From a virus, in IMG/VR virus record IMGVR_UViG_3300045988_100580, positions 17,594-81,593 of that record: a stretch of DNA of 64,000 bases. One strand, given 5' to 3'. Positions 14,467 to 31,221 of this stretch are shown here, piece by piece. The notes below the pieces were generated by a model. That model was not told the DNA's origin and ran no database searches. It worked only from the letters and a program-made list of their open reading frames with translations. Each line of letters opens with the position of its first letter. Positions within the stretch are counted from its first letter, which is position 1. The translations under genes were made by a program, and so were the position numbers.

Positions 14467-14997
14467 ATGAGAAGGAGATTTTTTAATGCTGCGGATAATT
14501 TTGTGGGAGGATGTTATAATAAGTTATCCAATGAAGATATAAAAAGGCTTGGAGGAAAAAGACCTTATGTATGTCAGTTTAATAAAATTCATATACATAT
14601 AGGACCTGTATTAAAAGATTATGATTCTGATGTTAGTTACATAATGTTTAATAGTGATTGGAATTATGGTGGTTATGAATCTATGGTTTATAATCATAGC
14701 AATAATGGTATTTTTATATTAGGTGAAAACAAAATTGGTAACATAGAAGATCATATACAAGATCTAACATATTGGTACGAATATGATCCAAGCATTAATG
14801 AAAATTATTGTTATTTTTATTATGAGGCTAATAACAGCGGAAATGCTATCAAGTTGAATGGTGAGTTTGGTGATACCAGTACTGTTTTCAACATTCCCAG
14901 CTTGAAAGTCACCACTCTTCGTGATGGCAGTTTGAGTTTTCCGGAGATTTATATAGAAGGAATTTGGGATCCGTCATTGTATAAGTCGGTTTTATAA
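14467..14997 (+). CDS. Small protein with N-terminal MRRRFF, beta-rich and N/Y/G-rich (177 aa from ATG 14467; the track starts at GTG 14458)
   Basis: AAGGAG 9 nt upstream of ATG 14467. First of three genes beginning MRRRF. Confidence 0.55.
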   Translation: MRRRFFNAADNFVGGCYNKLSNEDIKRLGGKRPYVCQFNKIHIHIGPVLKDYDSDVSYIMFNSDWNYGGYESMVYNHSNNGIFILGENKIGNIEDHIQDLTYWYEYDPSINENYCYFYYEANNSGNAIKLNGEFGDTSTVFNIPSLKVTTLRDGSLSFPEIYIEGIWDPSLYKSVL

Positions 14998-15021
14998 TTA
15001 ACTTTGCAAAAAAGTTAATTA
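14995..15021 (+). promoter_or_regulatory. A/T-only hairpin TAATTAACTT / AAGTTAATTA with 7-nt loop, between the stop at 14997 and ATG 15024
   Basis: 10-bp perfect inverted repeat with no following T-run. Confidence 0.25.
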
Positions 15022-15023
15022 CA

Positions 15024-17282
15024 ATGGGTGTCAAATGTCAGATAGAAAAAAAGGAAAATGAAATAAAACGGGTTAAGGCTCCTAACGGGGAGCCTTCCGT
15101 TCTTTACGAAAGTGCTTTAAAAGTATTAGGAAACAGCGAGCGGGCCCTTCAGGTATGGGCTAAGGCTTACACTCCTGGTTTTTTGTCGTATTACGGTCAT
15201 TGGAATAACCCGGCTCCAGGGGAGATGTTTAACACCGATCCCAATGGCGAACCTCTTTTAGAAGATGTGCTGTCGTATATGAAGCGTCAGACTTATTTTG
15301 CTGATCCTTTAACGGCTCAGGACATTAAGGATGTAAGGGATTTCCTTTTGTCTACTCATTATTTTTTCAATGCGTCTTCATTGTCTAATGCTATTCTCTT
15401 CGATTTTTATGTAGATGGCAGTTTGATACTGAATGAGCAGAAATTAAGGAGATCCGGTTTGTATGATGAAACAGAAATAAGTCGTATTTTATCCGATCCT
15501 TCTGTTTTAAACGAGGTTTCGACTTCCATGAGAAAGTTAATAGATTCTTCTATTAACGAACATGATAGGGAAAAAGATAATTATTTTATGTCTATTGACT
15601 ATCAGTATGGTCCTATTGTTTACAAGGAGGGAGTGTTTAACCAATTTGGTAAAAAAGTACCATATAATCCTTCTGAGCTTTATTGGGCTATGGGCAAAAC
15701 AGTAGCCGGCATAAAAAACTTTTCTGAATTTTCATCTGCTTTTGAATCGTTGAGAAACTCATACCCTGAACTGGTTGAGAAATTCGTTTCTGATAAAGAA
15801 TTTGCCGAATCTATGTTTGATGAGTTCTCATCTACGAATAAGATTCCGGTAATAAACATAGAAGGGGATGATGTGGTAGAAGGCAAGAGAAGATCCTTGT
15901 CTAAGCTACAAGATCTGTCTTATTACAATTCCGGCAAAATAGAGTTCCTAAGAGCTCGTATATCAGCTTATTTACATAGGGCTAATGCCGACACCGAATC
16001 CGACTTAAGAAGCATGATATGGGATATAGAAGAGGCTTGTACGTGGTTTGGCATAGATATAATAGGGACATCGGAAACTTATGATGGCACAGAAGAATCT
16101 TTGAATAAGATAGATAATTTGATGCTGGATCTTGATATTTATGTGGCCAGGCATAATGATGTAAATTATGCTCCAACGCTGGCATCTTCTATAGATGATG
16201 TTCTTGGTGATAGCACAGATTATTATTTTAGATTATTACCGGAGTATATGGATAATTTGAATATCGTTTATTCTGAATCCGATATAGACCCAGTAGAGGC
16301 ATTTGAGAAACATTCATTGCTTAAGGTAGGAGATAATCTATATCAAAGGATCAGCAAAGATGATATTAACGAGATGTATCAAATATCAACAGTGTTAGCC
16401 AAGTACAACCTAACTCATTTTTCTACTAAAATATATCCTGAATCTTGTTTTAAGAACGGCGTTTTGGATAAAGAGAAAGTACGGAACGTAGATAATAATA
16501 CGCTCATGGATTCCATTAAAAAATACGTCAGATCGTTCATGGATTCTCAGAACACAGAGGACATGATAATGACCAGGATGGCGTTTGGACACCCGGCGGT
16601 ACTTGACGTTCCTTACGTGGATGTGGATCGGGAGTATAGTCGATACATGAACAAAAAACAAGATAGCGAAAACCCATTATCCTTATTCGATTTATACCAA
16701 TCTTACCTTGACAACAAACTCCATAAAACAAAATTATATGATAATGCCTATAAGTATCTTGACTTCAAACCTGGTCCATCTTTGGGTCTTATTTCTGATG
16801 ATCCTGATATTTTGAAATCAATAGAATTATCTTTATCTGGAAAAGACAGGTTGATGTTGTTTGATTATAGCATGACCAGTACCGACCCTTCTTTATCAGA
16901 ATTGTTTTATTTGGAGAGGTATGACCCTTCGTATGCTGGGAATGATTTTGAACACTATTTTTACACCAGGCACCCGTATTTGTTAAAAGAAAAATCGGGT
17001 TCTAATATCGTAGAGCAAGATGGTGTTATAACAGCAGAAGGTATTTATGATAATTTTATAAGAGTAGGTAATAAGATATGGTCTAAAGTAAGCGAGAGTA
17101 GTTCCGGCTCTATCTACCAAAATCTGACAGGAACCGAATCGGAGGTGAAATACGATTCTACTCAGAAGGCTAAGACGGTAGAAACTGATTACGCTCCATA
17201 CCAAAACAGATCTGGCTTGACGCAAGACATGACCGTAAGTAAGTCTGAATTGGATGATCTTAACAAATTGGAATGCAGGTAA
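15024..17282 (+). CDS. Hypothetical large protein, 752 aa
   Basis: 2.3-kb ORF with no recognised motif. Confidence 0.6.
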   Translation: MGVKCQIEKKENEIKRVKAPNGEPSVLYESALKVLGNSERALQVWAKAYTPGFLSYYGHWNNPAPGEMFNTDPNGEPLLEDVLSYMKRQTYFADPLTAQDIKDVRDFLLSTHYFFNASSLSNAILFDFYVDGSLILNEQKLRRSGLYDETEISRILSDPSVLNEVSTSMRKLIDSSINEHDREKDNYFMSIDYQYGPIVYKEGVFNQFGKKVPYNPSELYWAMGKTVAGIKNFSEFSSAFESLRNSYPELVEKFVSDKEFAESMFDEFSSTNKIPVINIEGDDVVEGKRRSLSKLQDLSYYNSGKIEFLRARISAYLHRANADTESDLRSMIWDIEEACTWFGIDIIGTSETYDGTEESLNKIDNLMLDLDIYVARHNDVNYAPTLASSIDDVLGDSTDYYFRLLPEYMDNLNIVYSESDIDPVEAFEKHSLLKVGDNLYQRISKDDINEMYQISTVLAKYNLTHFSTKIYPESCFKNGVLDKEKVRNVDNNTLMDSIKKYVRSFMDSQNTEDMIMTRMAFGHPAVLDVPYVDVDREYSRYMNKKQDSENPLSLFDLYQSYLDNKLHKTKLYDNAYKYLDFKPGPSLGLISDDPDILKSIELSLSGKDRLMLFDYSMTSTDPSLSELFYLERYDPSYAGNDFEHYFYTRHPYLLKEKSGSNIVEQDGVITAEGIYDNFIRVGNKIWSKVSESSSGSIYQNLTGTESEVKYDSTQKAKTVETDYAPYQNRSGLTQDMTVSKSELDDLNKLECR

Positions 17283-17324
17283 TTTTTGTATATATATATA
17301 GTTTTTTCATAGTTATAATTTGGG

Positions 17325-17352
17325 AAGTGAGGCTTGTAAAAGTCTCACTTTT
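17325..17352 (+). terminator. Stem AAGTGAG/CTCACTT, 12-nt loop, then TTTTCTT
   Basis: 7-bp perfect stem directly followed by a T-run, downstream of the 752-aa gene. Confidence 0.5.
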
Positions 17353-17788
17353 CTTATATATGCACGTATATCAATAACATACAAGAAAAGTTAGATTTTC
17401 ATTGTTTATGAATTATTTTTGTTAAGTTTGCAATATTAGTTTCAGGAAGGGATTATGGAAATAAGGAAAAAGTAAGAACCGAACGTAACTAATAACAGTA
17501 GGAAATGAGAATCAGTACCATCAAACGTAACAACAGCATTCATCTTATGTATAAAAACATTATGAATGATTTAGGTCAATTAAGAACTGTAGTTTCAAAA
17601 TCCTATATTTATAATCTGATACAAAATCAAACCGGATTAAGTATCATAACTATATCCCATGTACTTAACCATACCAAAGAACAGGATACGGATTCTTTGT
17701 GAAAAGCATGTATTTTCATACATTTGTTCGTTCTTTAGTTTTAGTGGGGAAAAGTTTTTCATGGTATTTTAGTTTAGATTAGTTGAGG

Positions 17789-17823
17789 CAGGATTCGCAG
17801 TGATGCGGATCCTGTTTTGATTT
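17789..17823 (+). promoter_or_regulatory. 11-bp stem CAGGATTCGCA/TGCGGATCCTG (one G-U pair) with GTGA (GNRA) tetraloop, then TTTTGATTT
   Basis: Strong hairpin inside the 750-bp noncoding stretch 17283-18036. Confidence 0.45.
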
Positions 17824-18036
17824 ACAGCGCTTTACCCAAAAAAGGAAAAGCGAAAGTTGCTGATTATCAATTTTTCCCCATAAATGGGGAAAACTACTCG
17901 TTGTATATTATATTTCCGTTTTTACTGAAAATCCTTCCATTTTATCGGAAACAAACTCAGCCTTGTTCCACCCTGCAATCATAATCTTTGTTACGTGCTT
18001 CATGCACGTATGTTTAACAATTAAATACTATAAAAT

Positions 18037-19045
18037 TATGGGTGGTGATAAAATCGTCCTTTTAGATGGAGCCGGGGCTAACGGTGGTGGTGCAGCCACT
18101 AACGGTCTTCTTTCAATGATTCCCGGCATGTTTGCTAATTTGATAGGTGGTAATAAAATGGATCCGAATCTGGTGGCGGCTTTGATGAACGGTCGTAACA
18201 ACCAGGACGGTTTCGGTGGGGCTAACGGTTGGTGGCTCTGGATAATTGTTTTGTTCTGGCTGTGGGGTGGACGCGGCTTCGGTAACGGTTTTGGAAATGG
18301 CGGTGATTGTTGCGCCAATGGTTTGCCGGCTCAGTTGAATAACGATTACGGTCGTGAACTTTTGATGCAGGCAATTCAAGGTAATCGTAGCGCCATAGAT
18401 CAGATTGCTTCTGCTTTGAACTGTTCTACTACTCAACTTCAGAACGCTATCTGCAACGTACAGGGTGCTATTGATAAAGTAGCTGGTCAGGTAGGTATGA
18501 CTTCTCAGGCTGTTATCAACGCAGTTCAACAACAAGGTTGTGAAATAGGAAATCAAATCAGCTCTTGCTGCTGCAATCTGAGTTCGTTGATTAATCAAAG
18601 CACTTGCCAGACTCAGGGAATGATTACTCAGCAAGGTTTTGATAACCAGCTTCGCACGTTGGAACAAACCAATATCTTGCAGAATGGTCTCAACCAAGGT
18701 CTGGCTAACAATCGTGAGCAAGCTACAAGCCAATTCAATATCTTGTCTGCGAAACTTGACGCCCAAACCGTTATGATCAACGACAAATTCTGTCAGTTGG
18801 AAATGAGGGAGATGCAGAACACTATTGCTCAACTTCGTGAAGAAAAAGCGGCTTTGACAGCTTCGGCATTATCTCAGCAACAAACCCAGAATATCGTTGG
18901 TCAATTACGCCCGACGGCCGTCCCGGCCTACCCCTCTTGTTCTCCTTACCAGGCTTATACTTGGGGACAGGTATTCGGAGGAGGTTGCTGTAATAACGGA
19001 TGCGGATGTAACAACGGATGTTGCAATAACAACGCTGCTGTCTGA
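18037..19045 (+). CDS. Low-complexity membrane-associated protein: Gly/Asn/Gln-rich, one Trp-rich TM segment, C-terminal Cys/Gly/Asn repeat CCNNGCGCNNGCCNNN
   Basis: Start taken at ATG 18037 (MGGDKIV); the track begins at 17963. The composition is highly unusual. A mirror ORF at 18113..18832(-) is treated as an artefact. Confidence 0.5.
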
Positions 19046-19068
19046 TTTTATTAAGAAAGGAGGCTAAT

Positions 19069-19482
19069 ATGGCTTGTGTTTCTAAAATAGGATCGTTGTA
19101 TGAGATGGTTACGAAGAATGTTATTGTCAGTACGACAAATACAGTCTTCGGTATTAACCCACGGGCTTGGATCGCCCTTCCGTGTGAGGGTCTTATCCTT
19201 CTTAAGATAAGGCAAGTAGTCCCCACAGCCGGAAGTGCTCTACCGGTACAGATTGCGGTCCCGGCAAACAGCACAGTTTCAACAGTAGGAGCCGACACCT
19301 GTTGCCCGGTTACGGGAGTGAATGTCGTGAACCCTATTAACGTAGCTGTCACGGGTGCTGCTATGGTAAATGGCACAGAACGCCTTCTGTACTTCAATAA
19401 AGTTCGTGGCGTGTTAAGATTAATGGATTGTTGTGTTCCGACAACAACAGCCCAGGCGTCTGAAGTTAAAGCAGGTAAATGA
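19069..19482 (+). CDS. Hypothetical protein, 137 aa
   Basis: AAAGGAGG 9 nt upstream of the ATG, followed by a terminator hairpin. Preferred over the overlapping 18822..19397(-) ORF. Confidence 0.55.
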   Translation: MACVSKIGSLYEMVTKNVIVSTTNTVFGINPRAWIALPCEGLILLKIRQVVPTAGSALPVQIAVPANSTVSTVGADTCCPVTGVNVVNPINVAVTGAAMVNGTERLLYFNKVRGVLRLMDCCVPTTTAQASEVKAGK

Positions 19483-19489
19483 TTTCAGT

Positions 19490-19517
19490 AGGGTGATGAA
19501 GATCATCACCCTATTTT
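19490..19517 (+). terminator. Stem AGGGTGATG/CATCACCCT with 5-nt loop, then ATTTT
   Basis: 9-bp perfect stem with only a T4 run. Confidence 0.45.
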
Positions 19518-19532
19518 CACCTAACTAATATT

Positions 19533-20027
19533 TTGATCATGTTTTCAGATTTGAAGAAAGGGTTTCAGGTACATACCCTTGATACTAATACAGTACCTAA
19601 ATACGAATTGGGAAAGGTAGTAGCCGTATCCGAACCCAGGTATCTTCCTCCTCAGCCAGGTCAGTATCAGGCGATGCAGACCCGCGTGGTGGATCTGACG
19701 GTAGAGCTCACTGGCGAAACCAAGACCTATACGGTCCCGGAATCCCAGAATGTGGCTAAGGCTATGGGCATAACATTATCTACCAGCATAGATCCGATTA
19801 TGAACGAACTGAATGCTATAAAAAACACCAGTCAAGACATAATAAACAGCGTAGATGCCCATCGTGCCAAGATAGAGGCTTGTGAATCTATATTAGAAGA
19901 CATCAATCCGGCATTCAAACAAACGAGAGAGCAGGATCGTAAAATAGCTGGTATAGAAAATAAGGTGAATGACCTTACTGATTCATTCGAAGATTTAAAG
20001 AAGTTAATTGTAGAACGTTTGAAATAA
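19533..20027 (+). CDS. Hypothetical protein, 164 aa
   Basis: ORF track; no motif recognised. Confidence 0.5.
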   Translation: MIMFSDLKKGFQVHTLDTNTVPKYELGKVVAVSEPRYLPPQPGQYQAMQTRVVDLTVELTGETKTYTVPESQNVAKAMGITLSTSIDPIMNELNAIKNTSQDIINSVDAHRAKIEACESILEDINPAFKQTREQDRKIAGIENKVNDLTDSFEDLKKLIVERLK

Positions 20028-20034
20028 GTGTAAT

Positions 20035-20403
20035 ATGATAGTATATGATTTAAATTCAGGACACAGAGAATATCCTGGATATGACGAGATAGAAGACAGA
20101 CGAGGTGGAGGCAGAGGCAGAAGCCGGCGTTCTGATGGGACGTACATGGGGTACGGTGGTGGTATTTACGACCATTACGGTATGCATGAGAAGATGAAGG
20201 AAATGGAAGAACGCGAAAACGAGCTGGAAGAAAGGGAAAGAAGGCTTGAAGAGCGCGAACGTCGTCATGAAATGGAGGACCGGGAATACCGGAGGATGGG
20301 TTACGAATCCTACCCGACCGATTACTATGGAGACGACAGATACTACGGTGACGGACCTCAGATGCGTAGAGGTCGCGGACGTGGCAGAGGTCGTTCTTAT
20401 TGA
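20035..20403 (+). CDS. RGG/RG- and Tyr-rich low-complexity protein with ERE repeats (ends GRGRGRGRGRSY)
   Basis: 122-aa ORF ending at TGA 20401-20403. The same frame continues open to 20790. Confidence 0.5.
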   Translation: MIVYDLNSGHREYPGYDEIEDRRGGGRGRSRRSDGTYMGYGGGIYDHYGMHEKMKEMEERENELEERERRLEERERRHEMEDREYRRMGYESYPTDYYGDDRYYGDGPQMRRGRGRGRGRSY

Positions 20404-20496
20404 GGAGCAGACGCAGAGGATCCAGCTTATCAGAAATATGTAGATACTTACGGCTACCATTTTTCTAATGCTCTCGCTGATGAGGCGGTAAAGAAG

Positions 20497-20790
20497 ATGG
20501 TCAACGTCGATGGATCCAAGAGGATCTGGAAGCAGCCGGAAATAAAAGATATTTTTGAAAAGTGCGGAGCGAAGAAGCCGGATAAAGCGACATGGGGCGA
20601 TGTCCAATATGTCTTTGCAATGTACTATTCGGATGGTTTTCCGAAGGTCTTCAAATGTGAGAACGAGTTGGTGAAAGCTACGTTAATGTATTTGGATGAT
20701 CCGGATGCTCCCGAAGGAGTAGCCTTTATAAGATGGCTTGCCGTGCAAGATTACCTCGGCGAAAAAATAAACTGGAAGGATCTGACCTGA
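20497..20790 (+). CDS. Hypothetical globular protein; the frame is open from 20404, directly after the TGA of the RG-rich ORF
   Basis: First ATG at 20497. The 31 codons between TGA 20401 and ATG 20497 look coding (GADAEDPAYQKYVDTYGYHFSNALADEAVKK). Confidence 0.5.
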   Translation: MVNVDGSKRIWKQPEIKDIFEKCGAKKPDKATWGDVQYVFAMYYSDGFPKVFKCENELVKATLMYLDDPDAPEGVAFIRWLAVQDYLGEKINWKDLT

Positions 20791-20955
20791 GATCCAGATC
20801 CAGGTCCTTCCGGTGGTGCGGGAGCCATAGTAAAAAATATGATTCCCGCATTCCCGTTTTTCCCGTTTGGAAAAAAAAGGAATAAAAATATTATACCGGT
20901 CGGCGGGCAATAGAATACCCGTGGCCGGTTTGTTTCACATAACTTTTTTTGGGAT

Positions 20956-21132
20956 ATGAATATAGCACACGAATCTAAATCGAATAAAACCCCATTGTAT
21001 TTAATAGGAGAGTTGATTGGCGTACCGAATACGGTTATGGACTCAGCATTGCATGAACTGAAAGATAGAATAGACAAAGACCCTAAATATAAAGATGTTA
21101 AAAATTGGCTCGAATCTTTACCCAAGATCTGA
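20956..21132 (+). CDS. Small hypothetical protein, 58 aa (MNIAHESKSNKTPLYLIGEL…)
   Basis: Not in the track (under 60 aa). Translated by hand. Followed by a terminator. Confidence 0.35.
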   Translation: MNIAHESKSNKTPLYLIGELIGVPNTVMDSALHELKDRIDKDPKYKDVKNWLESLPKI

Positions 21133-21154
21133 ACCTATTTTTTTCAATACCAGG

Positions 21155-21190
21155 CCCGATGCGATTTTAACGTATCGGGTTTTTATTTTA
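21155..21190 (+). terminator. Stem CCCGATGCG/CGTATCGGG (one G-U pair), 7-nt loop, then TTTTTATTTTA
   Basis: GC-rich stem immediately followed by a T-run. Confidence 0.55.
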
Positions 21191-21259
21191 ATTCATATTG
21201 TTTTATTTTAAATCTAATTAATTCATGAATGTCGTACTTTTGTTGAAAAAGTATTCTAT

Positions 21260-21487
21260 ATGGAAAATAAGGAAGATTACGTTGGTTACGAGGATCAAGA
21301 ACTGTGTAACCGGTATTACAAAGAGGCTGAAGCCATGAGACAAAAGCAGGACTGGTCTCGGCTTAGGGCTGTCCCTGCTCCGGCCAAGGGAACGCCATCG
21401 CCCGGCTGGGGTCAGCTTGGACGTGGAAATGATGTCCGTGTTAAGTATGTTAGCATCAATTCAGGATTAGGAGGGGACAGATTATGA
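21260..21487 (+). CDS. Hypothetical protein, 75 aa
   Basis: ORF track. Confidence 0.4.
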   Translation: MENKEDYVGYEDQELCNRYYKEAEAMRQKQDWSRLRAVPAPAKGTPSPGWGQLGRGNDVRVKYVSINSGLGGDRL

Positions 21488-21514
21488 CTGTAGAAGAATT
21501 GGCTAATAAAAGAT

Positions 21515-21829
21515 ATGATGGACGGCAATCAGTTGGAGTATGAATTTGACAACATTAATTTAGATCATATCACATTTAAAGGTAATGGCAAAAAATCTTT
21601 TTCATTTAACAGATCCCTTGTTGAAAATTTAATTGAAACATTTGATACTATGCAGGATATATACTCTGATAATTACGGGATTAAGGTTTATACCGGTAAT
21701 TGCATAATTCAACTGAATGTAAATCCAAAGGACTTAAGTGAATCCTTTTTTGACGTATATGACAGAGTTGGGATGAAATTGGTATATAGCATACAAAATA
21801 GTATCTTGAAAGAAATGTTTATCATATGA
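21515..21829 (+). CDS. Hypothetical protein, 104 aa
   Basis: ORF track. A GGAGG at 21470 precedes a different 20-codon frame (ATG 21483), so the start is ambiguous. Confidence 0.45.
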   Translation: MMDGNQLEYEFDNINLDHITFKGNGKKSFSFNRSLVENLIETFDTMQDIYSDNYGIKVYTGNCIIQLNVNPKDLSESFFDVYDRVGMKLVYSIQNSILKEMFII

Positions 21830-22125
21830 TCACCAAGCAGGACATACAAGCAGCAGCATCGTATATTTTTCGAAGCAGTTTTGTCTCGGAAGACCAGGCA
21901 AGGAAAGTAATGGTAAGAGCCGGCAATAACGCTACCAAGATCCTCGTCAAGACCTTTAGAGGCAGGTTGTTCAAGAAAGCTTTTGGAAGAGCTCGTAGAG
22001 GAAAGGATATTAGTTCTTTTGAAAGACAGGAAAAAGAAAGTGGTTTCAATTTTCTACACAATCATAATAATGGTCGTATGCGAAGCGGTCATATTGTAAT
22101 AAACGGAACTGGTCTGTTTAAATAA
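21826..22125 (+). CDS. Hypothetical basic protein, 99 aa
   Basis: ATGA overlap with the upstream gene. Followed by a terminator. Confidence 0.45.
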   Translation: MITKQDIQAAASYIFRSSFVSEDQARKVMVRAGNNATKILVKTFRGRLFKKAFGRARRGKDISSFERQEKESGFNFLHNHNNGRMRSGHIVINGTGLFK

Positions 22126-22131
22126 ATAATG

Positions 22132-22161
22132 AAGTCGGGTACGTAAGTTATCCGACTTTTT
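22132..22161 (+). terminator. Stem AAGTCGG/CCGACTT, 13-nt loop, T5
   Basis: 7-bp stem plus T-run. Confidence 0.5.
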
Positions 22162-22163
22162 CA

Positions 22164-22171
22164 TATATTTG
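22164..22171 (+). promoter_or_regulatory. -7 box TATATTTG ending 4 nt before ATG 22176, implying a leaderless or near-leaderless mRNA
   Basis: Exact TAnnTTTG match immediately upstream of the start codon. Confidence 0.45.
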
Positions 22172-22175
22172 CGTT

Positions 22176-22499
22176 ATGGCAAGAGGTTATTATTGGATAC
22201 CACAGACAGATGAAACGTTAAATGGCATAAGCTATTACGTAGCTAAGATAGTAGGGGATATCACGTTTGATACTAAACGAAAAAGAATCGTATTTCAAGC
22301 TGATAGGTATTTCCCTGTAGGGTCTGTTTTCCATTTTACGCACAATTGCTTCAATTATATCATAACTTGCCGACTTCGCAAGCCGGGGCTTTGGTTTGAA
22401 GCCAGGAGAGAAGATTCGGGCCCTATTTGCCCTGAAGATATTGAGCGCTTTGAATCGGGAAGGTTTATACACCGAGATGGGTACATGCATTACATATAA
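22176..22499 (+). CDS. Hypothetical protein, 107 aa
   Basis: Promoter-proximal ORF, preferred over the overlapping 22218..22523(-). Confidence 0.5.
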   Translation: MARGYYWIPQTDETLNGISYYVAKIVGDITFDTKRKRIVFQADRYFPVGSVFHFTHNCFNYIITCRLRKPGLWFEARREDSGPICPEDIERFESGRFIHRDGYMHYI

Positions 22500-22503
22500 G
22501 CCG

Positions 22504-22539
22504 AACTTGACAATTGGCGTCAAGTTATAATTATTTTTT
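22504..22539 (+). terminator. Stem AACTTGAC/GTCAAGTT, 7-nt loop, then ATAATTATTTTTT
   Basis: 8-bp perfect stem plus T-run. First of two tandem terminators. Confidence 0.45.
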
Positions 22540-22554
22540 CTCCATATTATTTTT

Positions 22555-22593
22555 AAGCCATCAGACTGAGAAGTTAGATGGCTTTATTTTTTA
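22555..22593 (+). terminator. Stem AAGCCATC/GATGGCTT, 14-nt loop, then TATTTTTT
   Basis: 8-bp perfect stem plus T-run. Confidence 0.5.
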
Positions 22594-22613
22594 TGATATG
22601 CTTGATTTTTAAC

Positions 22614-22621
22614 TACCTTTG
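22614..22621 (+). promoter_or_regulatory. -7 box TACCTTTG, 23 nt upstream of ATG 22645
   Basis: Exact match to TAnnTTTG. Confidence 0.45.
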
Positions 22622-22644
22622 TCTCATAACAAAAATGTTTTACT

Positions 22645-25600
22645 ATGACATCAACGTGTATTATTAAAAGAGATAATAAAAATAAAGTTGTTTCTGTCTC
22701 TACCAGATCAGGGGACAGGTCTATGTTGTTTGATAAAATAGCATCTATTCCTCTTATGGAGAATAGGGAACGGGCTACTACTGTTTTTAAAACCGTATTT
22801 TCTAATAAGTTCTTAAAGGCTTTTGGTGACTGGAGAAGGAATGTGCCTATCAACAAACAGGCTTACAATAAGGTAAAATCTAACATCGGCCTTATTCCAG
22901 AGACCTATAGAGAAAGGGTGCTGGATAAGGCTTCTAAGATGAGCAACCCTATTCTTGTGTCGAAATCAGATGCACCTTATGGGATTCAAGAATCAGGCTT
23001 TGGATTTTATAGCCAAGATCTGGGTGATAATATTATGTTGGTGGATGCTATGGTTCCGTCAAGTATCTCCGTGCCGGAAGAACCAGGAATAGACTCAGGG
23101 CAGTATCTACAAGATGCTATATCTTCGGACTTCACTCCCGTATCTATGGTACAGGATAATGATGTTAATTATATGGTTATAAAAGACGGTCTTAAGATAT
23201 TTAGTCCAGAAGAGCTACCAGAAACAGATTCTAATCCTGTGGGTGTAACGTATCAGACTGGAGAACCTCGTTTGTTTTTTATGAATGATCGTAATCAATT
23301 ATTTGAAGATTACGGAGAAGCTCTTCGCTCTGGCGGGAATGATATCAGAATAGGATTCTTATCAGGCATCGTTCAAGAATCTACCGTGGATGGAGTGGCA
23401 GACATTACTTACAAGGCTGGAAAGTATGTTCTTAATAATCCCAAGTCTTTTATACCGGTCATGACCGCTTCTGCTTCTACTTCTTTATCAACAAAAGGCG
23501 GTATAATTAACTACCTTATAAAGAAAGGTCTTTTGTCCGGATCCAAGATATTCGATCCGGAAACAAGAAGCTATTATATTACAGGAGAAGGACATACAGG
23601 ACAAATTAGACTTTTCAATTCAGCCTTATCCTACACTGAGCTCCGTAATCATTTTGGTTCCGATGTTTCCATGAACGACCAGGGTATGATAACCATAAAT
23701 TCATTGGATAATAGTAAGGTAACTATGAGACTCGCCACCGGAGGAACAGAAAGAGTTAGCAAGGAGCAGATAAAGAGCGATCTTAAGTCTGGAAGATACA
23801 ATGAATTGGATGCTAAATACGATCACTTTGATGCGCTTGTAGTTTCATTTATATTAGAAGACAATGATCTTTATGCTGATACTAAAGCTAAGATAGTATC
23901 GGATTATAGCCAAGAGGAACGTAATCAACGAAATTCTATTGTTGAGATACTGAAAACGCTGGGCGTTAGTGTCGTTGGCATGACCGATTATATAGAGAAG
24001 TACCAAACTAAATACGGACACGAACCTTCTGCTAAGGCATTGGCGGATATTGCCAATAACGTAATAGCAGTCGGTGAAGATGCTACTTTGTCTGACTTAG
24101 TAGAAGAAACAGCACACTTTCTCGTAGAGGCGTACAGAGATCAGAATGCTGTTGAATCTGTTTTGCAAGATGTAGAAGGCACTGAAGAATGGAATCAGTA
24201 TGCAGGTCAGTATTATAATACATACGGTAAGGTATATGAAGGCTCTGAACTTGATAATGCTGTTAGGAGAGAAATTCTTGGAAAGATCCTCGCCAGGGAG
24301 ATGCAGACCGGCACAGCACAGGCGCCGGTAGAGCCCACCTCCTTCCTGGGGCGCGTCCGGCAGCTTCTCTCTGGAATTGTAAACTGGCTTAAATCAGCTT
24401 TATCAACCCAAAGACAGGATTTGAATAACGTTATTAAAAATATTCGTGATCTTGCCATTACTGACATAGATAAAGGATTTGACACCTCTCTGTTAAAGGA
24501 TAATGACTTTACATTATACTCCCTTTCTTCTATGAACAAGAACAAGTTTCTTGAGTCCAAGATCAGATCACTAAGAAAAACATTAAGAGACTTACGTCAG
24601 ATAAGCTCTGATAGGGCTGTAACTACGTCTATGACCCTTGCTCAGCTTAAGACCATAGAAGATAAGATAAATAAGGTAGAGACCGAAATAGACAAGAATG
24701 AGATGGCGGCTGCCATGAACAGCATGATCTCCACAGCCGAAGCTCAGGTCAGATACTTAAGTAATGTGGTGAACGCCATCCTTCATGGTGATACCAAAGA
24801 TGGTAAGCTTCACTTCAATACCAATGATCGAAAGAACGTAGATATTATCAACAATCAGGTTCTTCCGATCATGAACGATCTTCGAGGATATATCCGTAAC
24901 AGAAGTACCGAATTTGATGAACGTGAAAAGCAGGATTATACAAATAGGATCAATACCGTCATTGCCGACATCAATGGTATTCAGTCTGATATTAAATCAG
25001 TACAAGACCTTGATGAAAGCACGTTGCTTGATAAGTTAATGAACGAACTTCATGTGCCGGCAGATAAGGTAAAGAGAGTAAAAGAATTTTTTGACAAGGT
25101 TCAACACGATGTTTCTTGGATAAGTAGGTGGTTCGGTATATTAGAGCATTCTTCCAGTCCGTTCAATAACGCTCTTGGAGCTATGATTGCCAAAGACAAT
25201 TACAATGCGATGGTGAATGCCCAGCCCGCCATATCTGACTTCCTGGCATATGCTAAAAAGCATGGTTTTAACAAATCTGAATTTGAAAAACTGCTTCAGA
25301 AAGTAGACGGCAAAACTTCTAATTACCTTCGTAGTGCTCTTGATATGGCTAAATACGATCGTAATAAGAAGTTGGCGCAGATGCGAGCGTTTGCGACTGC
25401 CATGAACATAGAAATATCAGAAGAAGAAATCAATGATGTGGTTGACAATAATCGTAATTACGTATTTAAAAGAGAAGTAGTTGACAAGGACGGAAATACG
25501 GTTACTGAAAACGCTAAATTTAAGCCCTCATCTGACAGGGTTAATACTGATATTTTTACCATCGAGCAGGAAAAGATCTATACAGAACAGATGGAGAAGT

Positions 25601-28600
25601 GGGATGCTGAAAATTCAGAACTGGAATTTAGTGAAAGTTATGCCACAAGAATGGAATCCATATACAAAAAGGCCGAAGAAGAATTAGGGCATCCGGTTTC
25701 TCAAACAACCAAAGAATACCTTAATGCTCTTTCTCGGCAGAAGCGGATATTGAGGCAGCCTTTTATTGATAGCAATGGTAATTTTGATGAGGTTGCTTAC
25801 TATAAGAGTAGTAACTACGAAGAAGAAGGACTGCTTCGTAAACAACGTAAGGAAGCAGCTTCAGAATACATATATGTAGGAACCAGGAGAGTGGAAAAAA
25901 CCGGCGACCAACTTAAGATGGCCAAAGAAATACAAGCTATAAATGAAGTTTGGAGAAAGGAATCAAATAATGTCACTAATGTCGTATCAGAATCGTTTTT
26001 GCAAAAATTGAGAACGATTCAGAACGAGTCAGGAGGAGAAGCTGCGCTGAAGACACTTATGTTGGGGGGGCACCTGTCATTCAACGATCGGTTTTGGAAT
26101 GACGTAGAATCAGAACAATCGGCGCGTACCGAATCAAATAACAAGGCTTCGTATCTTAAAATGGCACAAGACATCATTAGTTCTACGACAAGTGATAGAG
26201 ATGCAACTGACGTGGATTCGATTGTAAAAGATATAGAAAAAAATAAGGCTATTATAAAGGAAATAATCGGAAACAATCGCGATGTGGCTGATATCGGAGA
26301 AATTAATGAAGCGACATTTACCTCATCTGAAAGAGATGCTTTTAGGGCCGCATCTGAAGCTATTGAAGCCGATTACGCTATCTTAATAGATTATGCTAAG
26401 ATGGTGGGTCTTGAAGATATTGATAAGTACCTTACTAAAAGCAGTAAGGCTGAAAACGAAGTAAATCAGTCTTATTTAAATGCTCTTGCTGACTCCAAGG
26501 AAGTGGAATGGAAGTTCGTACAACGTCATACTACGGCGAAGAAAGCAAAAAGGATTCAAGCCTTAAGGGATAAGTTATTCAAAGCTGCTGATAACCGGTA
26601 TCTGTTTACCGTATCTGAAACCAACTACTTGTCAGAAAAGCTTGGAATAAGCAAAGAATTAGACGGTAGAGATTTTAGGAATGCCGTCAATGCTAAAATG
26701 GCCAGCTTGTTTTTAAATAACACAAGAGAATCAGGTATAGAAGAGGCTAATGCTATTGTTAATGAATTTGCCAGGAGCCAGGTCTTTTCATACTATAAAC
26801 GCATGGCGCCTACCGGATATGCGGCTATGATCGACAAAATTGGTCGAGGTGAGATAGATGTGGCGCAGATGGTTAAGGACGTACAAAACGGTACATCCAC
26901 CCAAGATTATGGCATGGACATATCGTACCTGTCTTTCGACCCTGCAAGGGCATGGGTGGCTGAATCTGAAGCCGAAAATAGCGGTCGTAATCCTGATTAT
27001 GTAAAAGATCATGGGTATGGTCATCGCATGCCTAAGAAAAGCCTGTATCGTGATGAATCGTATCTCAATGACTTTGGTATCAAATATGATGCTGATGGTA
27101 ATGAGGTCGCTACTAAAAACGTAGAGCAGTGGAATATGATTCAAAAACTCAAGGAAATAAAAAGACAATCCCTTGATCTATACAAAGAGCAGAGTCCCAA
27201 TTTGTATGCTATTCCACAGATATCAAAACAAGACATAGAACGTATGGAAGGATTGGGTATTAACTTCAAAAATACGGTTCGTAATTTTGTATCAGATCTG
27301 TGCCTGGACAGAGTAGACGATTCTCTATATGGTAAGACCAGGCAAGGGGAAGTATATGACCCGGAAGACAGACTTAGGTCTATACCTAAATACTACATAT
27401 ATGAATTGGAGAACCAAGATGATGTATCTCACGATTTTGGCTACTCTTATTCGATGCTTATGATGCAGTCATCGTTATACAACGAAAAGCAGAAGTCTAT
27501 AGAGCTTGCCCAAGGACTGGAGCAGATGTTGCTGAACAAACAATTTGAGGGCGGTAAGAAGGCTGAAGCAACCCAAGCATATCAGATGTTTAGGGACTTC
27601 TTCAACGATCATTATTATGGCATTAGGATGAACACCAAAAAACTTACGGTGAACATCGGAGGATATGCGGTAGACCTTACAAGAATTATGATGGCTGTTG
27701 AAAGATTTATGTCGGTTATGAACTTGGCACTGTCTCCGTTTGTGGCAGCTACCGGCGCCCTGACAGGTCATATCAACCTCATCATGGAATCTGCCGTAGG
27801 ACAGTATATAAGCAAAGACTCCCTTAAATACGCATCGGCTGAGTTTTCACGTCTTGCGCCATCTTGTATAGCAGAAACCGGAGACATAGATAGGAAAAGC
27901 AAATTATATGTCATAGGTGAGAGAATGGGGATATTCAATATCCGAAATCGTATGTATGGTGCCGGATACAATAGAGCGGCCAGGACCTTAATGCGTTCGC
28001 CTATGTATGCTTTTATGGAAATCCTGAACTACCCTCTTAATCCGCAGGTTATGATTGCTACTATGGACAATGTTCGTTATTACAAAGGCCGGTTCTACAC
28101 GTTCCAAGATTTCAAGATGGAAAAAGAACGCAATAAAGAACAGAGTACCATAAAAAGAGAATGGAACGCATTAAAAGATCGTACTTTATGGAGTATGGTA
28201 GACGTCGTGGATGGAAAGGTGGTTGTAAAGCCGGGATCGGGTGTTACTGTTGAGGAAGTTGAAACCCAGATGGCTATAACCAGGAATCAAGTCCGTAGCT
28301 TGTCGCAGATATGTAACGGATCTTTGAATGAAGAAAACCGAACTGCCGCATCGCGCAACTGGATAGCCAGGTTCATGACCGCCCACCGAGGCTGGCTGGT
28401 GCTGGCAGCTCAACGTCTGTGGAAAAGACGTGGCTTCAATTTCCAAACAATGCAAGAAGAGGAAGGGTTGTCAATTACGTTAAAGAATATGATAGCCAAA
28501 ACATTTAGCTTAGCTTCCGAGTCTGGTATGAAAAACATCATAGATGCCTGGAACGAAAATAAAGATAATATGAATGAGGTAGAGAAAACCAATATAAAAC

Positions 28601-29067
28601 GTCTTAGTGTCTATGCCGGCACGTTCCTTATCATGCAAGCCGTATCCATGCTTCTTGCCGGATGGCGTGATGATGATGAAAACGAAGAAAGTTGGCTTAC
28701 TCAATTTGGATCCTATGTCGGATTCAGAACCATAAACGAAATAGCTTCACAGATGCCGTTTATTATGGAGCTTAACGTTGTAGATATCATTAACGACCCG
28801 TTTGTCATGGGGCGGAAGTTGAAGGATCTTACTGATCTTAGGAATTACTCACTTGATAAAGTAACATCCGGCACATACAAAGGAGAGTTTAAGTTATTTA
28901 GGCAACTCGCCAAACAGACGTTTATCAAACAATGGTATAACATCAAGACGCCGGAAGACATAGCGCGCGCCTATAATTGGTGGCAGCAGACAAACAACAA
29001 GTCAATGATGTTCTTCATCGGCGCCACTCCTGATTCGGAAGGAGACGATGATGTTAGTTACAAATAG
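22645..29067 (+). CDS. Giant protein, 2140 aa; candidate virion-packaged RNAP subunit or ejected cargo protein (hypothesis only)
   Basis: 6.4-kb uninterrupted ORF with its own promoter box and upstream terminators. Confidence 0.6.
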   Translation: MTSTCIIKRDNKNKVVSVSTRSGDRSMLFDKIASIPLMENRERATTVFKTVFSNKFLKAFGDWRRNVPINKQAYNKVKSNIGLIPETYRERVLDKASKMSNPILVSKSDAPYGIQESGFGFYSQDLGDNIMLVDAMVPSSISVPEEPGIDSGQYLQDAISSDFTPVSMVQDNDVNYMVIKDGLKIFSPEELPETDSNPVGVTYQTGEPRLFFMNDRNQLFEDYGEALRSGGNDIRIGFLSGIVQESTVDGVADITYKAGKYVLNNPKSFIPVMTASASTSLSTKGGIINYLIKKGLLSGSKIFDPETRSYYITGEGHTGQIRLFNSALSYTELRNHFGSDVSMNDQGMITINSLDNSKVTMRLATGGTERVSKEQIKSDLKSGRYNELDAKYDHFDALVVSFILEDNDLYADTKAKIVSDYSQEERNQRNSIVEILKTLGVSVVGMTDYIEKYQTKYGHEPSAKALADIANNVIAVGEDATLSDLVEETAHFLVEAYRDQNAVESVLQDVEGTEEWNQYAGQYYNTYGKVYEGSELDNAVRREILGKILAREMQTGTAQAPVEPTSFLGRVRQLLSGIVNWLKSALSTQRQDLNNVIKNIRDLAITDIDKGFDTSLLKDNDFTLYSLSSMNKNKFLESKIRSLRKTLRDLRQISSDRAVTTSMTLAQLKTIEDKINKVETEIDKNEMAAAMNSMISTAEAQVRYLSNVVNAILHGDTKDGKLHFNTNDRKNVDIINNQVLPIMNDLRGYIRNRSTEFDEREKQDYTNRINTVIADINGIQSDIKSVQDLDESTLLDKLMNELHVPADKVKRVKEFFDKVQHDVSWISRWFGILEHSSSPFNNALGAMIAKDNYNAMVNAQPAISDFLAYAKKHGFNKSEFEKLLQKVDGKTSNYLRSALDMAKYDRNKKLAQMRAFATAMNIEISEEEINDVVDNNRNYVFKREVVDKDGNTVTENAKFKPSSDRVNTDIFTIEQEKIYTEQMEKWDAENSELEFSESYATRMESIYKKAEEELGHPVSQTTKEYLNALSRQKRILRQPFIDSNGNFDEVAYYKSSNYEEEGLLRKQRKEAASEYIYVGTRRVEKTGDQLKMAKEIQAINEVWRKESNNVTNVVSESFLQKLRTIQNESGGEAALKTLMLGGHLSFNDRFWNDVESEQSARTESNNKASYLKMAQDIISSTTSDRDATDVDSIVKDIEKNKAIIKEIIGNNRDVADIGEINEATFTSSERDAFRAASEAIEADYAILIDYAKMVGLEDIDKYLTKSSKAENEVNQSYLNALADSKEVEWKFVQRHTTAKKAKRIQALRDKLFKAADNRYLFTVSETNYLSEKLGISKELDGRDFRNAVNAKMASLFLNNTRESGIEEANAIVNEFARSQVFSYYKRMAPTGYAAMIDKIGRGEIDVAQMVKDVQNGTSTQDYGMDISYLSFDPARAWVAESEAENSGRNPDYVKDHGYGHRMPKKSLYRDESYLNDFGIKYDADGNEVATKNVEQWNMIQKLKEIKRQSLDLYKEQSPNLYAIPQISKQDIERMEGLGINFKNTVRNFVSDLCLDRVDDSLYGKTRQGEVYDPEDRLRSIPKYYIYELENQDDVSHDFGYSYSMLMMQSSLYNEKQKSIELAQGLEQMLLNKQFEGGKKAEATQAYQMFRDFFNDHYYGIRMNTKKLTVNIGGYAVDLTRIMMAVERFMSVMNLALSPFVAATGALTGHINLIMESAVGQYISKDSLKYASAEFSRLAPSCIAETGDIDRKSKLYVIGERMGIFNIRNRMYGAGYNRAARTLMRSPMYAFMEILNYPLNPQVMIATMDNVRYYKGRFYTFQDFKMEKERNKEQSTIKREWNALKDRTLWSMVDVVDGKVVVKPGSGVTVEEVETQMAITRNQVRSLSQICNGSLNEENRTAASRNWIARFMTAHRGWLVLAAQRLWKRRGFNFQTMQEEEGLSITLKNMIAKTFSLASESGMKNIIDAWNENKDNMNEVEKTNIKRLSVYAGTFLIMQAVSMLLAGWRDDDENEESWLTQFGSYVGFRTINEIASQMPFIMELNVVDIINDPFVMGRKLKDLTDLRNYSLDKVTSGTYKGEFKLFRQLAKQTFIKQWYNIKTPEDIARAYNWWQQTNNKSMMFFIGATPDSEGDDDVSYK

Positions 29068-29203
29068 ACGAAGAATATCGGACTTGCATTGTTTTTGTAT
29101 GATTCCAATATGTTATATTAGCATCGTCAAAGAGTAGATTGTACGTTTTTTGTTCTTACTTGAAAGATTATGTAGGTTAAATTTTTTCTGAAATTGTTTT
29201 CTT

Positions 29204-29245
29204 ACCGGTTCTCAGTCAGAGATGATAGGGAACCGGTTTCTTTTA
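29204..29245 (+). terminator. Stem ACCGGTTC/GAACCGGT, 18-nt loop, then TTCTTTTAT
   Basis: 8-bp perfect stem plus T-rich tail, downstream of the 2140-aa gene. Confidence 0.4.
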
Positions 29246-29281
29246 TGTTGTCAATTATTGCTATCTTGCAAACAAAAAATC

Positions 29282-29899
29282 ATGAGACGAAGATTTCAAA
29301 TAGGGATGGGGGTAAATCCCTCGCTTATAATCAATAAAGGCATATACATCCAACATGTAGATGGAGGATTATATACAAAAGAAAATTGGTCTAATAAAGG
29401 ATATTCCAATGATCTATGCAATGGAATAGCTCTTGTAGATAAAGTGTGTTTTGTTATAGCCACCGAATATATTGGCACATTTAGTTGGGGTAAGGATGGA
29501 AGAGTAGACAATGTATTTGCACAAAATAGTTCTTATATGGAGACCGTTAAAAAGGATTATTGGGGGCGTGAAAATCAGAATGCGTATCTTGAATATGATA
29601 CCAGTAATGAAAATTACGCTTTTAATAAAGCTAATAGCTATTTATTTAAAAATGGTCAAAATGGATATGTAGGTGGCGCCGGAGAGTTTTTTTTGATATC
29701 ATTGTATGCGAATGAAATAAACGAATGTCTTTTAATGGTAGGAGGTACGATAATGAGTAATAAAATGTGGACATCCACTCAATCTACACAATTTACCTAT
29801 TCGTGGTATTATGATATAAACATCCAAGGAGATCATTTGGATACAAGTACAAGGAGTAATCCACGTTATGTCCGCCCCTTTACCGAATTAATTTTATGA
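29282..29899 (+). CDS. MRRRFQ… protein with a DUF1566-like C-terminus (WTSTQ…SWYYDINIQG…RYVRPF); start taken at ATG 29282
   Basis: C-terminal pattern resembles the DUF1566 signature (YWSST…AWyvnf…VRcVR). The track starts further upstream at 29222. Confidence 0.5.
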   Translation: MRRRFQIGMGVNPSLIINKGIYIQHVDGGLYTKENWSNKGYSNDLCNGIALVDKVCFVIATEYIGTFSWGKDGRVDNVFAQNSSYMETVKKDYWGRENQNAYLEYDTSNENYAFNKANSYLFKNGQNGYVGGAGEFFLISLYANEINECLLMVGGTIMSNKMWTSTQSTQFTYSWYYDINIQGDHLDTSTRSNPRYVRPFTELIL

Positions 29900-29903
29900 A
29901 ATT

Positions 29904-29978
29904 ATGAGAAGAAGATTTGAAAATAATGCTAAACTATATGAGTATAAGATAGTTAGCAATTGTATAGGGGGGGGGTAA
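29904..29978 (+). CDS. ATG-initiated 24-codon frame (MRRRFENNAKLYEYKIVSNCIGGG*) that ends right after a G9 tract; N-terminal part of a frameshift-split gene
   Basis: ATG 29904, G run 29967-29975, TAA 29976-29978. One added G would fuse it to the 29960..30643 frame. Confidence 0.5.
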   Translation: MRRRFENNAKLYEYKIVSNCIGGG

Positions 29979-30643: not shown

Positions 30644-30689
30644 CAACAATCCCCAACCGTACGCCTATTGTATGGTTGGGGATTGTTGT
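30643..30689. terminator. 16-bp perfect inverted repeat ACAACAATCCCCAACC / GGTTGGGGATTGTTGT with 15-nt loop, at the point where the two gene blocks converge
   Basis: Perfect 16-bp stem with a T-rich tail on the plus side (CATCTTTTCTT). Likely bidirectional terminator. Confidence 0.6.
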
Positions 30690-30732
30690 AGTTACCATCT
30701 TTTCTTGTATAAGCAGAACATGAAATAAGTTT

Positions 30733-31221
30733 CTAAGCATTAACTTCATGACCTCCCCTATCTGTGAAAACTAAACCAATACCTTCTATGATATGTCCTA
30801 CTACAGGAGCTTTGTCAAATTCCTCCTTCGTAGCCCAAGTAGCATTATCAGGCATAAGATCCTTGAATGCGTCCGAAACATCACCTTGACACCAGCAGTT
30901 ATTTGATGTAACAATGCCTTTCCCTTCGATATTGATATACATTTTTCTTCCACCACATCCAAGGCTGTTCCATCCGCTCGGTACGTTTTCCACCATAGGC
31001 TTAAGCACCCAGCTTACACCGTCTATCCTAACCCATCCAGGATCGTCTTTGTGCTTGTCGTACAAGTTTTGCCAAAAAGAGCATTCGTAGCACCATCCCC
31101 TGTCTTCCATGACAGTTCTTATCTCACTCCTTTCAAATCCATCTGCATCCATCGTGTGCGGAGAATGAGGCTGGTGAGGGGTGCCACATTTTGGACATAC
31201 GAGTTTTAAATTCTTTTCCAT
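30733..31221 (-). CDS. Cys/His-rich hypothetical protein (CPKCG…H…CYECSFW), 162 aa
   Basis: Last gene of the leftward block. Putative zinc-binding. Confidence 0.5.
   Translation of the reverse strand: MEKNLKLVCPKCGTPHQPHSPHTMDADGFERSEIRTVMEDRGWCYECSFWQNLYDKHKDDPGWVRIDGVSWVLKPMVENVPSGWNSLGCGGRKMYINIEGKGIVTSNNCWCQGDVSDAFKDLMPDNATWATKEEFDKAPVVGHIIEGIGLVFTDRGGHEVNA

Follow-up and report, generated by a model that had tools for sequence, protein, structure and literature searches.

Why should small late genes of a crAss-like phage, whose products appear otherwise unrelated, open with the same short run of arginine codons? The question is raised by a 64,000-nt stretch of the IMG/VR record IMGVR_UViG_3300045988_100580 (17,594-81,593; hereafter the window, whose positions are used below), in which three small genes starting at 14467, 29282 and 29904 encode proteins beginning with MRRRF. 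The original prediction regarded these genes as exchangeable modules that follow giant genes and share either an N-terminal docking or initiation tag or a recombination hotspot. The window is ~95% identical to crAssE-Sib (OR575929, 151 kb, human gut; 91% of the query matched in 6 pieces by megablast), an epsilon crAss-like phage (PMC11054128). For each giant C-terminus we fetched 80 IMG/VR loci, and ~240 related contigs were compared in all. The genes turned out to be exchangeable cassettes with only the N-terminal tag in common, as had been proposed: in natural populations their bodies, as read from these contigs, are replaced, deleted and shuffled, with the junctions at or inside the tag codons.

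One tag on many unrelated late proteins

With up to one mismatch allowed, ATGAGAAGRAGATTT matched the window three times, at 14467, 29282 and 29904, always on the + strand. Only 0.09 matches were expected by chance from dinucleotide-preserving shuffles, and three or more were obtained in 0/100 shuffles, confirming that MRRRF starts are peculiar to these three genes of the window. When all six frames were scanned for M[RK][RK][RK] at the head of an open reading frame (ORF) of at least 30 amino acids (aa), MRRR turned up solely at 14467 (176 aa) and 29282 (205 aa); the third start opens an ORF of only 24 codons. The large neighbouring proteins contain two occurrences of RRR in 7,420 residues. 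Across the whole genome of crAssE-Sib, RRR directly after Met or Met-Ser and followed by F or Y was found at six ORF starts (five MRRR[FY] and one MSRRRY), all of them inside the late/structural block of the + strand and three of them upstream of the part equivalent to the window. Because MRRRF starts are rare in the crAssE-Sib genome and present in relatives, distant Crassvirales included, the observation that the original prediction had named as fatal to itself (starts common genome-wide or missing from relatives) was not made.

The tag is conserved as a peptide. Five Arg codons (AGA, AGG, CGA, CGT and CGC) are used for it across sites and lineages, and a version reading ATG AGG CGT CGT TTC is also found in the same genome; related loci exchange F and Y and occasionally replace a single R by K (MKRR). 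Often extended to MRRRFEN, the peptide seems to mark small late proteins found in epsilon crAss-like phages as well as in other Crassvirales. Codons 2 and 4 are AGA in 3/3 tags of the window, whereas AGA makes up 35% of Arg codons, and this sharing fits recent exchange among the tags. A signal peptide of the twin-arginine translocation (Tat) or lipoprotein type was considered and rejected, as the residues behind the tag are polar or charged in the sequences inspected (FFNAADNF, FQIGMGVNPS, FENNAKLYEYK) and form no hydrophobic h-region. Full-text literature searches for the motif MRRRF returned nothing relevant.

MRRR[FYL] is the sole part common to the bodies here designated A, B, C, D/D' and E, a Gly-rich protein, a 169-aa protein, a 218-aa protein and a 772-aa BACON protein. 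In the contigs compared, the tag is the only thing that unites at least eight unrelated bodies in three clusters of the late module, one before the muzzle gene (cluster I), one after the 2213-aa giant gene (cluster II) and one after the 2140-aa giant gene (cluster III). In crAssE-Sib, cluster I (62743-65413 of the record; L001/L164) lies just upstream of the muzzle gene and consists of MSRRRYFEE, a Gly-rich MRRRF protein and MRRRFENVN; among 80 related loci, as many as four tagged genes stand there. The MRRRFENVN gene of crAssE-Sib is cut to 32 aa directly before a TnpB (IS605-family) gene, and is 169 aa long in untruncated relatives.

The tag also occurs far beyond this lineage. A profile of the D family, searched against 1.84 billion cluster representatives (one per 50%-identity cluster), retrieved distant proteins of 194-753 aa with a common PEGA-like N-terminal domain, YxYxIxSNCxGGxVxVDG..vGtI. 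Those matching from residue 1 nearly all begin with MRRR (e.g., P0186, P0187, P0202, P0205, P0215, P0219, P0228, P0218 and P0224) and a few with MRRN, MRRS or MKRRF, and internal repeats of the same domain occur without the arginines. The contigs of these distant members are Crassvirales, as indicated by CrAss_Ring_1/2 and crAss_MUZ matches; one tagged gene adjoins BACON and muzzle genes, and another lies directly 3' of a 966-aa fibre-repeat gene. Since members of the family reside upstream of the muzzle gene or after the 966-aa fibre gene, a position behind a giant gene is not a family property. Even in the window, the description 'directly downstream of a giant' holds for 14467 (2 nt after the stop) and fails for the other two, because the gene at 29282 is 214 nt away behind a hairpin and that at 29904 follows the 29282 gene. 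Word-indexed homologue searches found A only in this phage lineage and returned only the same lineage for C and D. Searching 50,697 phage records by tblastn, with the giant C-terminus and with the tag-plus-PEGA N-terminus, yielded no informative relatives.

Exchange, deletion and switching of the cassettes

Site 1 lies behind the 2213-aa giant, the C-terminus of which is 96-100% identical across 80 loci. In these loci, body A is found in ~55 and the unrelated body B (MRRRYEDVS, 192 aa) in ~24; crAssE-Sib carries B. When aligned, the genes for A and B are identical up to ATGAGAAGGAGAT (gene nt 13) and dissimilar from the next base on, and homology returns just before the ATG of a 752-aa gene at 15024. 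An AT-rich hairpin was noted at 14992-15024.

Behind the 2140-aa giant, whose C-terminus is 98-99% identical to that of the window across the fetched loci, presence and frameshifts were counted in 74 full-length loci. Gene C (site 2) was intact in 24, frameshifted in 27 and absent from 23, and 16/74 loci had no tagged gene after this giant. At least four bodies occupy site 3, namely D (245 aa), D' (27% identical to D), E (149 aa) and a type represented by P0187, with the adjacent giants being 96.7-99% identical. The genes for D and E split after ATGAGAAGAAGATTTGAAAATA, i.e., after codon 7. Hybrid proteins were found as well: P0183 is composed of parts of E and C, and P0193 of the N-terminal domain of D and a D'-like C-terminal domain. 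Tags 2 and 3 belong to a 24-nt direct repeat (29277-29300 and 29899-29922; 88% identical, 622 nt apart). In three loci (L111, L128 and L143), the upstream spacer of site 2 and its CGA-containing tag are joined to the body of the site-3 gene; gene C (622 bp) was thus lost through a crossover within the tag. The 'recombination hotspot' of the original prediction thus holds only in that the tag DNA provides microhomology; neither a dedicated recombinase nor a dedicated site was seen. As the tag DNA acts as microhomology for deletion, both of the alternatives in that prediction, a peptide tag and a recombining DNA element, are partly right.

A further arrangement was seen in L252 (7694-9496), the giant of which is 96.7% identical to that of the window. 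Three tagged genes stand there in tandem, an E-like gene (139 aa), a frameshifted C and the D-like P0187, whose representative falls into another 50%-identity cluster than the window-type D; the array can therefore hold more slots than are occupied in the window. The 3' ends of C and D (29888-29902 and 30627-30641) share 15 nt, TTAATTTTA[TC]GA[AT]AT (87%), possibly by chance; A, B and E showed no such stretch at their ends.

Genes C and D were found to be OFF in the majority of genomes, in most cases through a homopolymer tract, with the ON and OFF states taken from consensus metagenome assemblies and counted per contig, not per independent event. By this count, D was OFF in 23/40 loci and C in 27/51, and E, which is without a long tract, was intact in 14/15. 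In D, the tract is G10 in 9 loci, all of which encode 244-245 aa, G9 in 15 loci (14 yielding 24 aa) and G8 in 5 loci (26-45 aa). The window carries G9, so its D is OFF, and in relatives with G10 D is one intact 245-aa protein. The third gene thus behaves as the phase-variable gene that it was proposed to be, tract length toggling the frame between close relatives. Most OFF cases of C are broken at the G5 or T8 tract. The G tract (the G of ATG not counted) measured 5 nt in 46 loci, 6 in 7, 4 in 2 and 9 in 2, and the T tract was T8 in 34 loci, T7 in 6 and T9 in 7. All ON/OFF combinations of C and D occur among the loci. Directly 3' of tag 1, T6 was counted in 50 loci and T7 in 3 by a ruler-based survey (53 and 3 by a regular-expression count), and MRRRFF-stop ORFs were recorded for L003, L004 and L025. 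We infer switching from these differences between assembled genomes, and not from changes within a lineage.

For comparison, tracts of 6-7 nt in conserved genes, which are not length-matched to that of D, were invariant in up to 73 loci, and intergenic tracts vary. Between the 2140-aa gene and tag 2, the tract at 29146-29151 was T6 in 52 loci and T7 in 22, and that at 29274-29279 was A5 in 42 and A6 in 11. The latter, 3 nt upstream of the start of gene C, could affect expression. In crAssE-Sib, a G11 tract (~63254-63264; L164 ~13254-13264) precedes the start of the Gly-rich tagged gene by 20 nt and is a candidate for a phase-variable promoter or leader; an exact-flank search recovered it in 1/80 related loci.

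Selection, bodies and surroundings

Estimated as crude Nei-Gojobori means over 13-44 related, recombining sequences, the ratio of nonsynonymous to synonymous substitution rates (dN/dS) was 0.01 for the C-terminus of the 2140-aa giant, 0.18 for the whole gene A, 0.41 for B, 0.85 for C and 1.15 for D, in which codons 151-245, encoding the C-terminal domain, reached 3.7. The 752-aa gene was left out, as its sequences were misaligned by indels. For the first 20 codons of A, C and D the same estimate was 0.07, 0.00 and 0.11, respectively, with B (0.65) being the exception. In A, C and D, purifying selection acts on the first ~20 codons, the tag among them, and some of the bodies are under positive selection. 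The D family comprises 224 clusters at 90% identity, spanning 78-95% identity, beside a giant that is 98-99% identical. A diversity-generating retroelement (DGR) was rejected as the source of this hypervariability, because the template repeat (TR) of crAssE-Sib matches only its own annotated variable region (VR) and has no match in the window above chance. The DGR of crAssE-Sib itself (45751-47816 of the record, L163; annotated VR, TR and initiation of mutagenic homing (IMH) site plus reverse transcriptase) is aimed at a tail-fibre gene, and the phage therefore has a separate, known diversification system.

Nothing significant was found for A, B, C, D or E in Pfam or PHROGs, and the label DUF1566-like, once attached to the protein starting at 29282, is unsupported, since protein C has no Pfam match at E <= 1. 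Other tagged members gave significant Pfam matches to Gly_rich_2 (E=5e-16), to DUF5977 (three copies) together with BACON (two copies), and, in P0218, to BACON; matches to PEGA were weak and sub-threshold, and a match to Lcl_C (PF07603) in a sister cassette (L187:6749-7402) scored 15.9 bits against a cutoff of 34.9. The AlphaFold model of D is all-beta (confidence score pLDDT 75), with a sandwich resembling immunoglobulin (Ig) or fibronectin type III (FN3) domains and a disordered tag. As far as domain matches and this model can tell, the recognisable bodies seem to be of adhesin type (PEGA-like, Ig-like sandwich, Gly_rich_2, BACON, DUF5977 and, weakly, Lcl_C).

The features of the region are collected in Table 1. 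Neither giant has a Pfam match or a PDB sequence match, and their PHROG annotations are 'virion structural protein' or unknown. Distant homologues of the 2140-aa protein occur in several crAss-like phages as well as in the Cellulophaga phages phi17:2 and phi4:1. On its right, the cassette region is bounded by the hairpin with 20-nt arms that separates the late block from the convergent replication block; this hairpin is kept in crAssE-Sib 3' of a different cassette. A scan of 28900-30800 for sigma-70 promoters and terminators gave matches no better than those in shuffles, promoters of Bacteroidota being outside the models of the scan.

Table 1. Tagged genes, tracts and flanking features (window positions; proteins before the muzzle gene are listed last)
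Feature	Position	Strand	Remark
2213-aa virion-type giant gene	7823..14464	+	upstream of cassette 1; phrog_32390
Tagged gene A, 176 aa, MRRRFFNAAD...	14467..14997	+	intact; 2 nt after stop of 2213-aa gene
Tag 1, ATG AGA AGG AGA TTT (MRRRF)	14467..14481	+	motif match
T6 tract directly 3' of tag 1	14479..14484	+	T7 gives MRRRFF-stop
3' boundary of cassette 1	14998..15023	+	A/B homology returns just before ATG of 752-aa gene (15024)
2140-aa virion structural giant gene	22645..29067	+	precedes cassettes 2 and 3; matches phrog_37651 ('virion structural protein') at E=8e-76
Imperfect hairpin	29204..29237	+	in 214-nt spacer from 2140-aa gene to tag 2
Tagged gene C, 205 aa, MRRRFQIGMG...	29282..29899	+	intact in window
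Tag 2, ATG AGA CGA AGA TTT	29282..29296	+	motif match
G5 tract, codons 9-11 of gene C	29308..29312	+	length change gives 18-19 aa product
T8 tract in gene C	29687..29694	+	T7 or T9 gives ~137-147 aa product
Tagged gene D	29904..30643	+	OFF in window: 24 codons from 29904, frameshift, rest is ORF 29960-30643
Tag 3, ATG AGA AGA AGA TTT	29904..29918	+	shared stretch extends to GAAAATA (MRRRFEN)
G9 tract in gene D	29967..29975	+	candidate phase-variation switch; G10 in frame, G9 and G8 out of frame
Hairpin with 20-nt arms	30643..30689	.	between end of + strand late block (30643) and convergent - strand replication block
Pre-muzzle tagged protein MSRRRYFEE, 153 aa			
Pre-muzzle tagged Gly-rich protein			several tag variants
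Pre-muzzle tagged protein MRRRFENVN, 169 aa			
Pre-muzzle tagged protein MRRRFEFDNN, 218 aa			
Pre-muzzle tagged MRRRFLYDLEKF protein, 772 aa			one locus

Between the two giant-gene regions, the block at 17300-22600 differs in gene content from its counterpart in crAssE-Sib (L001 11300-20300), and is a second plastic region of the late module. This block contains an antirepressor gene, a DUF2829 gene and others in crAssE-Sib. In the window it holds, among others, a 360-aa Gly/Gln/Cys-rich protein of odd composition (17963-19045, + strand) with C-terminal CCNNGCGCNNGCCNN repeats; its PHROG match is phrog_16490 (unknown function), and the crAssE-Sib annotation calls it 'spike protein/glycoprotein'. 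A 122-aa low-complexity protein (20035-20403, + strand) is R/E/G/Y-rich, with RGRGRGR ends and a core of ERERR(L/H)EE repeats.

The possible role of the tag

We consider the chances to be about even (roughly 0.5) that the tag is a docking peptide for optional, dispensable, fast-evolving surface-binding modules, which are swapped and phase-varied. We favour this reading because of (i) the adhesin-type domains, (ii) the ring, muzzle and fibre neighbourhood, (iii) the positive selection on bodies as opposed to purifying selection on the tag, and (iv) a precedent in crAss001. In that phage, only N-terminal residues (1-38 of gp21, 1-58 of gp29 and 1-26 of gp22; Bayfield et al. 2023, PMC10172136) fix the fibres to the capsid or tail hub. 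crAss001 belongs to the same virus order, and a short N-terminal anchor leaves the rest of its fibres as a free binding module. Nevertheless, its anchors are 26-58 residues long, differ from one another and are not MRRR, whereas here a single Arg-rich tag of 4-7 residues stands on many unrelated bodies and attachment is putative. If the tag is a docking peptide, every module would be plugged by its free basic N-terminus into a single conserved, acidic virion socket, and any body furnished with the tag could be mounted there. The bodies would bind glycans of the host or gut surface, and homopolymer slippage together with tag-mediated recombination would vary the displayed modules across the phage population. 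The near-identical tag DNA would then be a by-product, doubling as microhomology for the loss and exchange of cassettes. It is tempting to generalise this to a 'plug-and-play' display in Crassvirales, in which one virion socket would accept any MRRR(F/Y) protein and the adhesin repertoire would shift as modules are hot-swapped and phase-varied, albeit we put this extension forward tentatively and regard it as possible but doubtful.

Several points weigh against a docking peptide. A tag of 4-5 residues is very short for a docking element, and the socket is hypothetical; the tagged proteins are known here from genes alone, and their attachment to the virion is putative. No MRRR start is present in 49 kb of crAss001, the sole crassvirus with a solved virion, or in the region 3' of the homologous giant in Cellulophaga phage phi17:2. 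In bodies A, C and E, neither Pfam nor PHROGs picked out a domain, and the AlphaFold model of C, built on a 7-sequence alignment, is unusable (pLDDT 27.7). The dN/dS of C (0.85), together with its frequent frameshifts and deletions, also fits simple decay. The crude dN/dS means, the counting of ON/OFF states per contig and the control tracts of unmatched length, all mentioned above, count on the same side.

How else could one short tag have come to stand on so many proteins? The internal proteins of phage T4 offer a different model: after packaging into the head and cleavage by the prohead protease they act in the cytoplasm of the host, and an N-terminal tag of ~10 residues targets them to the capsid. 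Work of the Repoila/Krisch type reportedly described polymorphism of the loci for these internal proteins. Like them, the proteins studied here share an N-terminal tag on otherwise unrelated small bodies, encoded by hyperplastic, dispensable loci. By analogy, the tag might be a packaging or ejection signal, through which small cargo such as anti-defence proteins would enter the capsid or tail lumen and be injected with the giant proteins. Clusters II and III do adjoin giants resembling ejected proteins of crAss-like phages (PMC11054128), an Arg-rich peptide could bind DNA, and the positive selection would suit anti-defence proteins as well as adhesins. We nevertheless hold such a signal to be unlikely. 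The recognisable bodies look like extracellular binding domains, from BACON, DUF5977 and Gly_rich_2 to the PEGA-like and Ig-like folds and the weak Lcl_C; the genes around cluster I and the distant members are ring, muzzle, fibre and BACON genes, not cargo genes. In the sequences read, moreover, neither a conserved motif of protease-cleavage type behind the tag nor any shared motif beyond MRRRFEN was seen by eye, no formal motif search having been made.

The tag might also have no function as a peptide, its codons being kept as the first codons of paralogues by descent or gene conversion, or because the purine-rich AUG AGA AGR AGA favours initiation or translational coupling in a host that makes no use of Shine-Dalgarno sequences, with the bodies largely belonging to decaying accessory genes. 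The AGA shared at codons 2 and 4 suggests some nucleotide-level identity, two of the three starts stand in tight coupling with the upstream stop, C (dN/dS 0.85) is often broken or deleted, and the whole cluster is missing from 16/74 loci. Against this, the five Arg codons, including those of AGG CGT CGT TTC within the same genome, make the 'initiation tag' of the original prediction unlikely, and Lys codons would suit an A-rich start equally well, yet only an occasional single R-to-K change (MKRR) is seen. The tag also persists in homologues of <50% identity that have otherwise changed, whereas internal copies of the domain are without it. As A is under purifying (0.18) and D under positive selection, these two at least are not junk, and we judge a functionless or purely translational tag to be improbable. 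Still less credit is due to the tag DNA being the recombination site of a dedicated, integron- or shufflon-like cassette system with the peptide as an incidental product, which we regard as very unlikely. The exchange and deletion junctions do fall at or inside a 15-24 nt repeat, and the cassettes do form tandem arrays of up to 3-4; but the crAssE-Sib annotation shows no integrase or invertase in the vicinity of the clusters, the tag DNA differs between sites, and no conserved 3' site or inverted repeat bounds the cassettes, the tag being the sole meaningful repeat. The 3' junction of cassette 1 coincides with the start of the flanking homology, which fits ordinary homologous or microhomology recombination between co-infecting relatives.

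A docking peptide would have familiar counterparts. In T7-, SP6- and K1-5-like tail spikes, the two-receptor-binding-protein systems of the Klebsiella phages KP32 and KP34, and the gp38 adhesins of T-even phages, a conserved N-terminus is retained and bodies are swapped at a domain boundary. Modular receptor-binding proteins have hypervariable distal segments, and positive selection acts distally. The tagged proteins resemble them in the conserved N-terminus, the recombining bodies, the distal hypervariability and the positive selection; they differ in that the conserved part is only a few residues long and up to 6-8 tagged genes per genome stand in three clusters, each dispensable and several under homopolymer control. 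Hypermutable polyG tracts occur in receptor-binding genes of Campylobacter Fletchervirus phages, according to the citation of Sorensen et al. (2021, Cell Rep 35:109214) in PMC10877375. Those genes and bacterial contingency loci share with C and D a homopolymer in the 5' part of a host-interaction gene, frame switching and a mixed ON/OFF population, the difference being that we are dealing here with a crAss-like phage of gut Bacteroidota and with switching deduced between assembled genomes.

Exchangeable bodies on a conserved N-terminal anchor are a known principle, and so is the switching of phage receptor-binding genes by polyG tracts. What is new is an Arg-rich tag of 4-7 residues on many unrelated bodies, with up to 6-8 tagged genes per genome in three clusters, its spread across Crassvirales, and the way it goes together with homopolymer switching and presence/absence polymorphism in a crAss-like phage of the gut. 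The terms hypervariable, frameshift and homopolymer do not appear in the text of the genome paper on this phage group.

crAss-like phages are among the dominant viruses of the human gut, and how they recognise their hosts and persist alongside hosts that vary their surface by phase is an open question. In a late module that is otherwise highly conserved, plasticity and positive selection are strongest in the tagged genes. The findings also suggest that the phage itself uses contingency loci. The tagged genes define a searchable class of candidate accessory binding proteins, namely any late gene beginning with MRRR. If the tag is a docking peptide, it would provide a minimal handle for engineering the host range of crassviruses or for displaying foreign domains on their virions. 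If plug-and-play display is real, it would be a phage-side counterpart to the phase-variable capsules of the Bacteroidota hosts.

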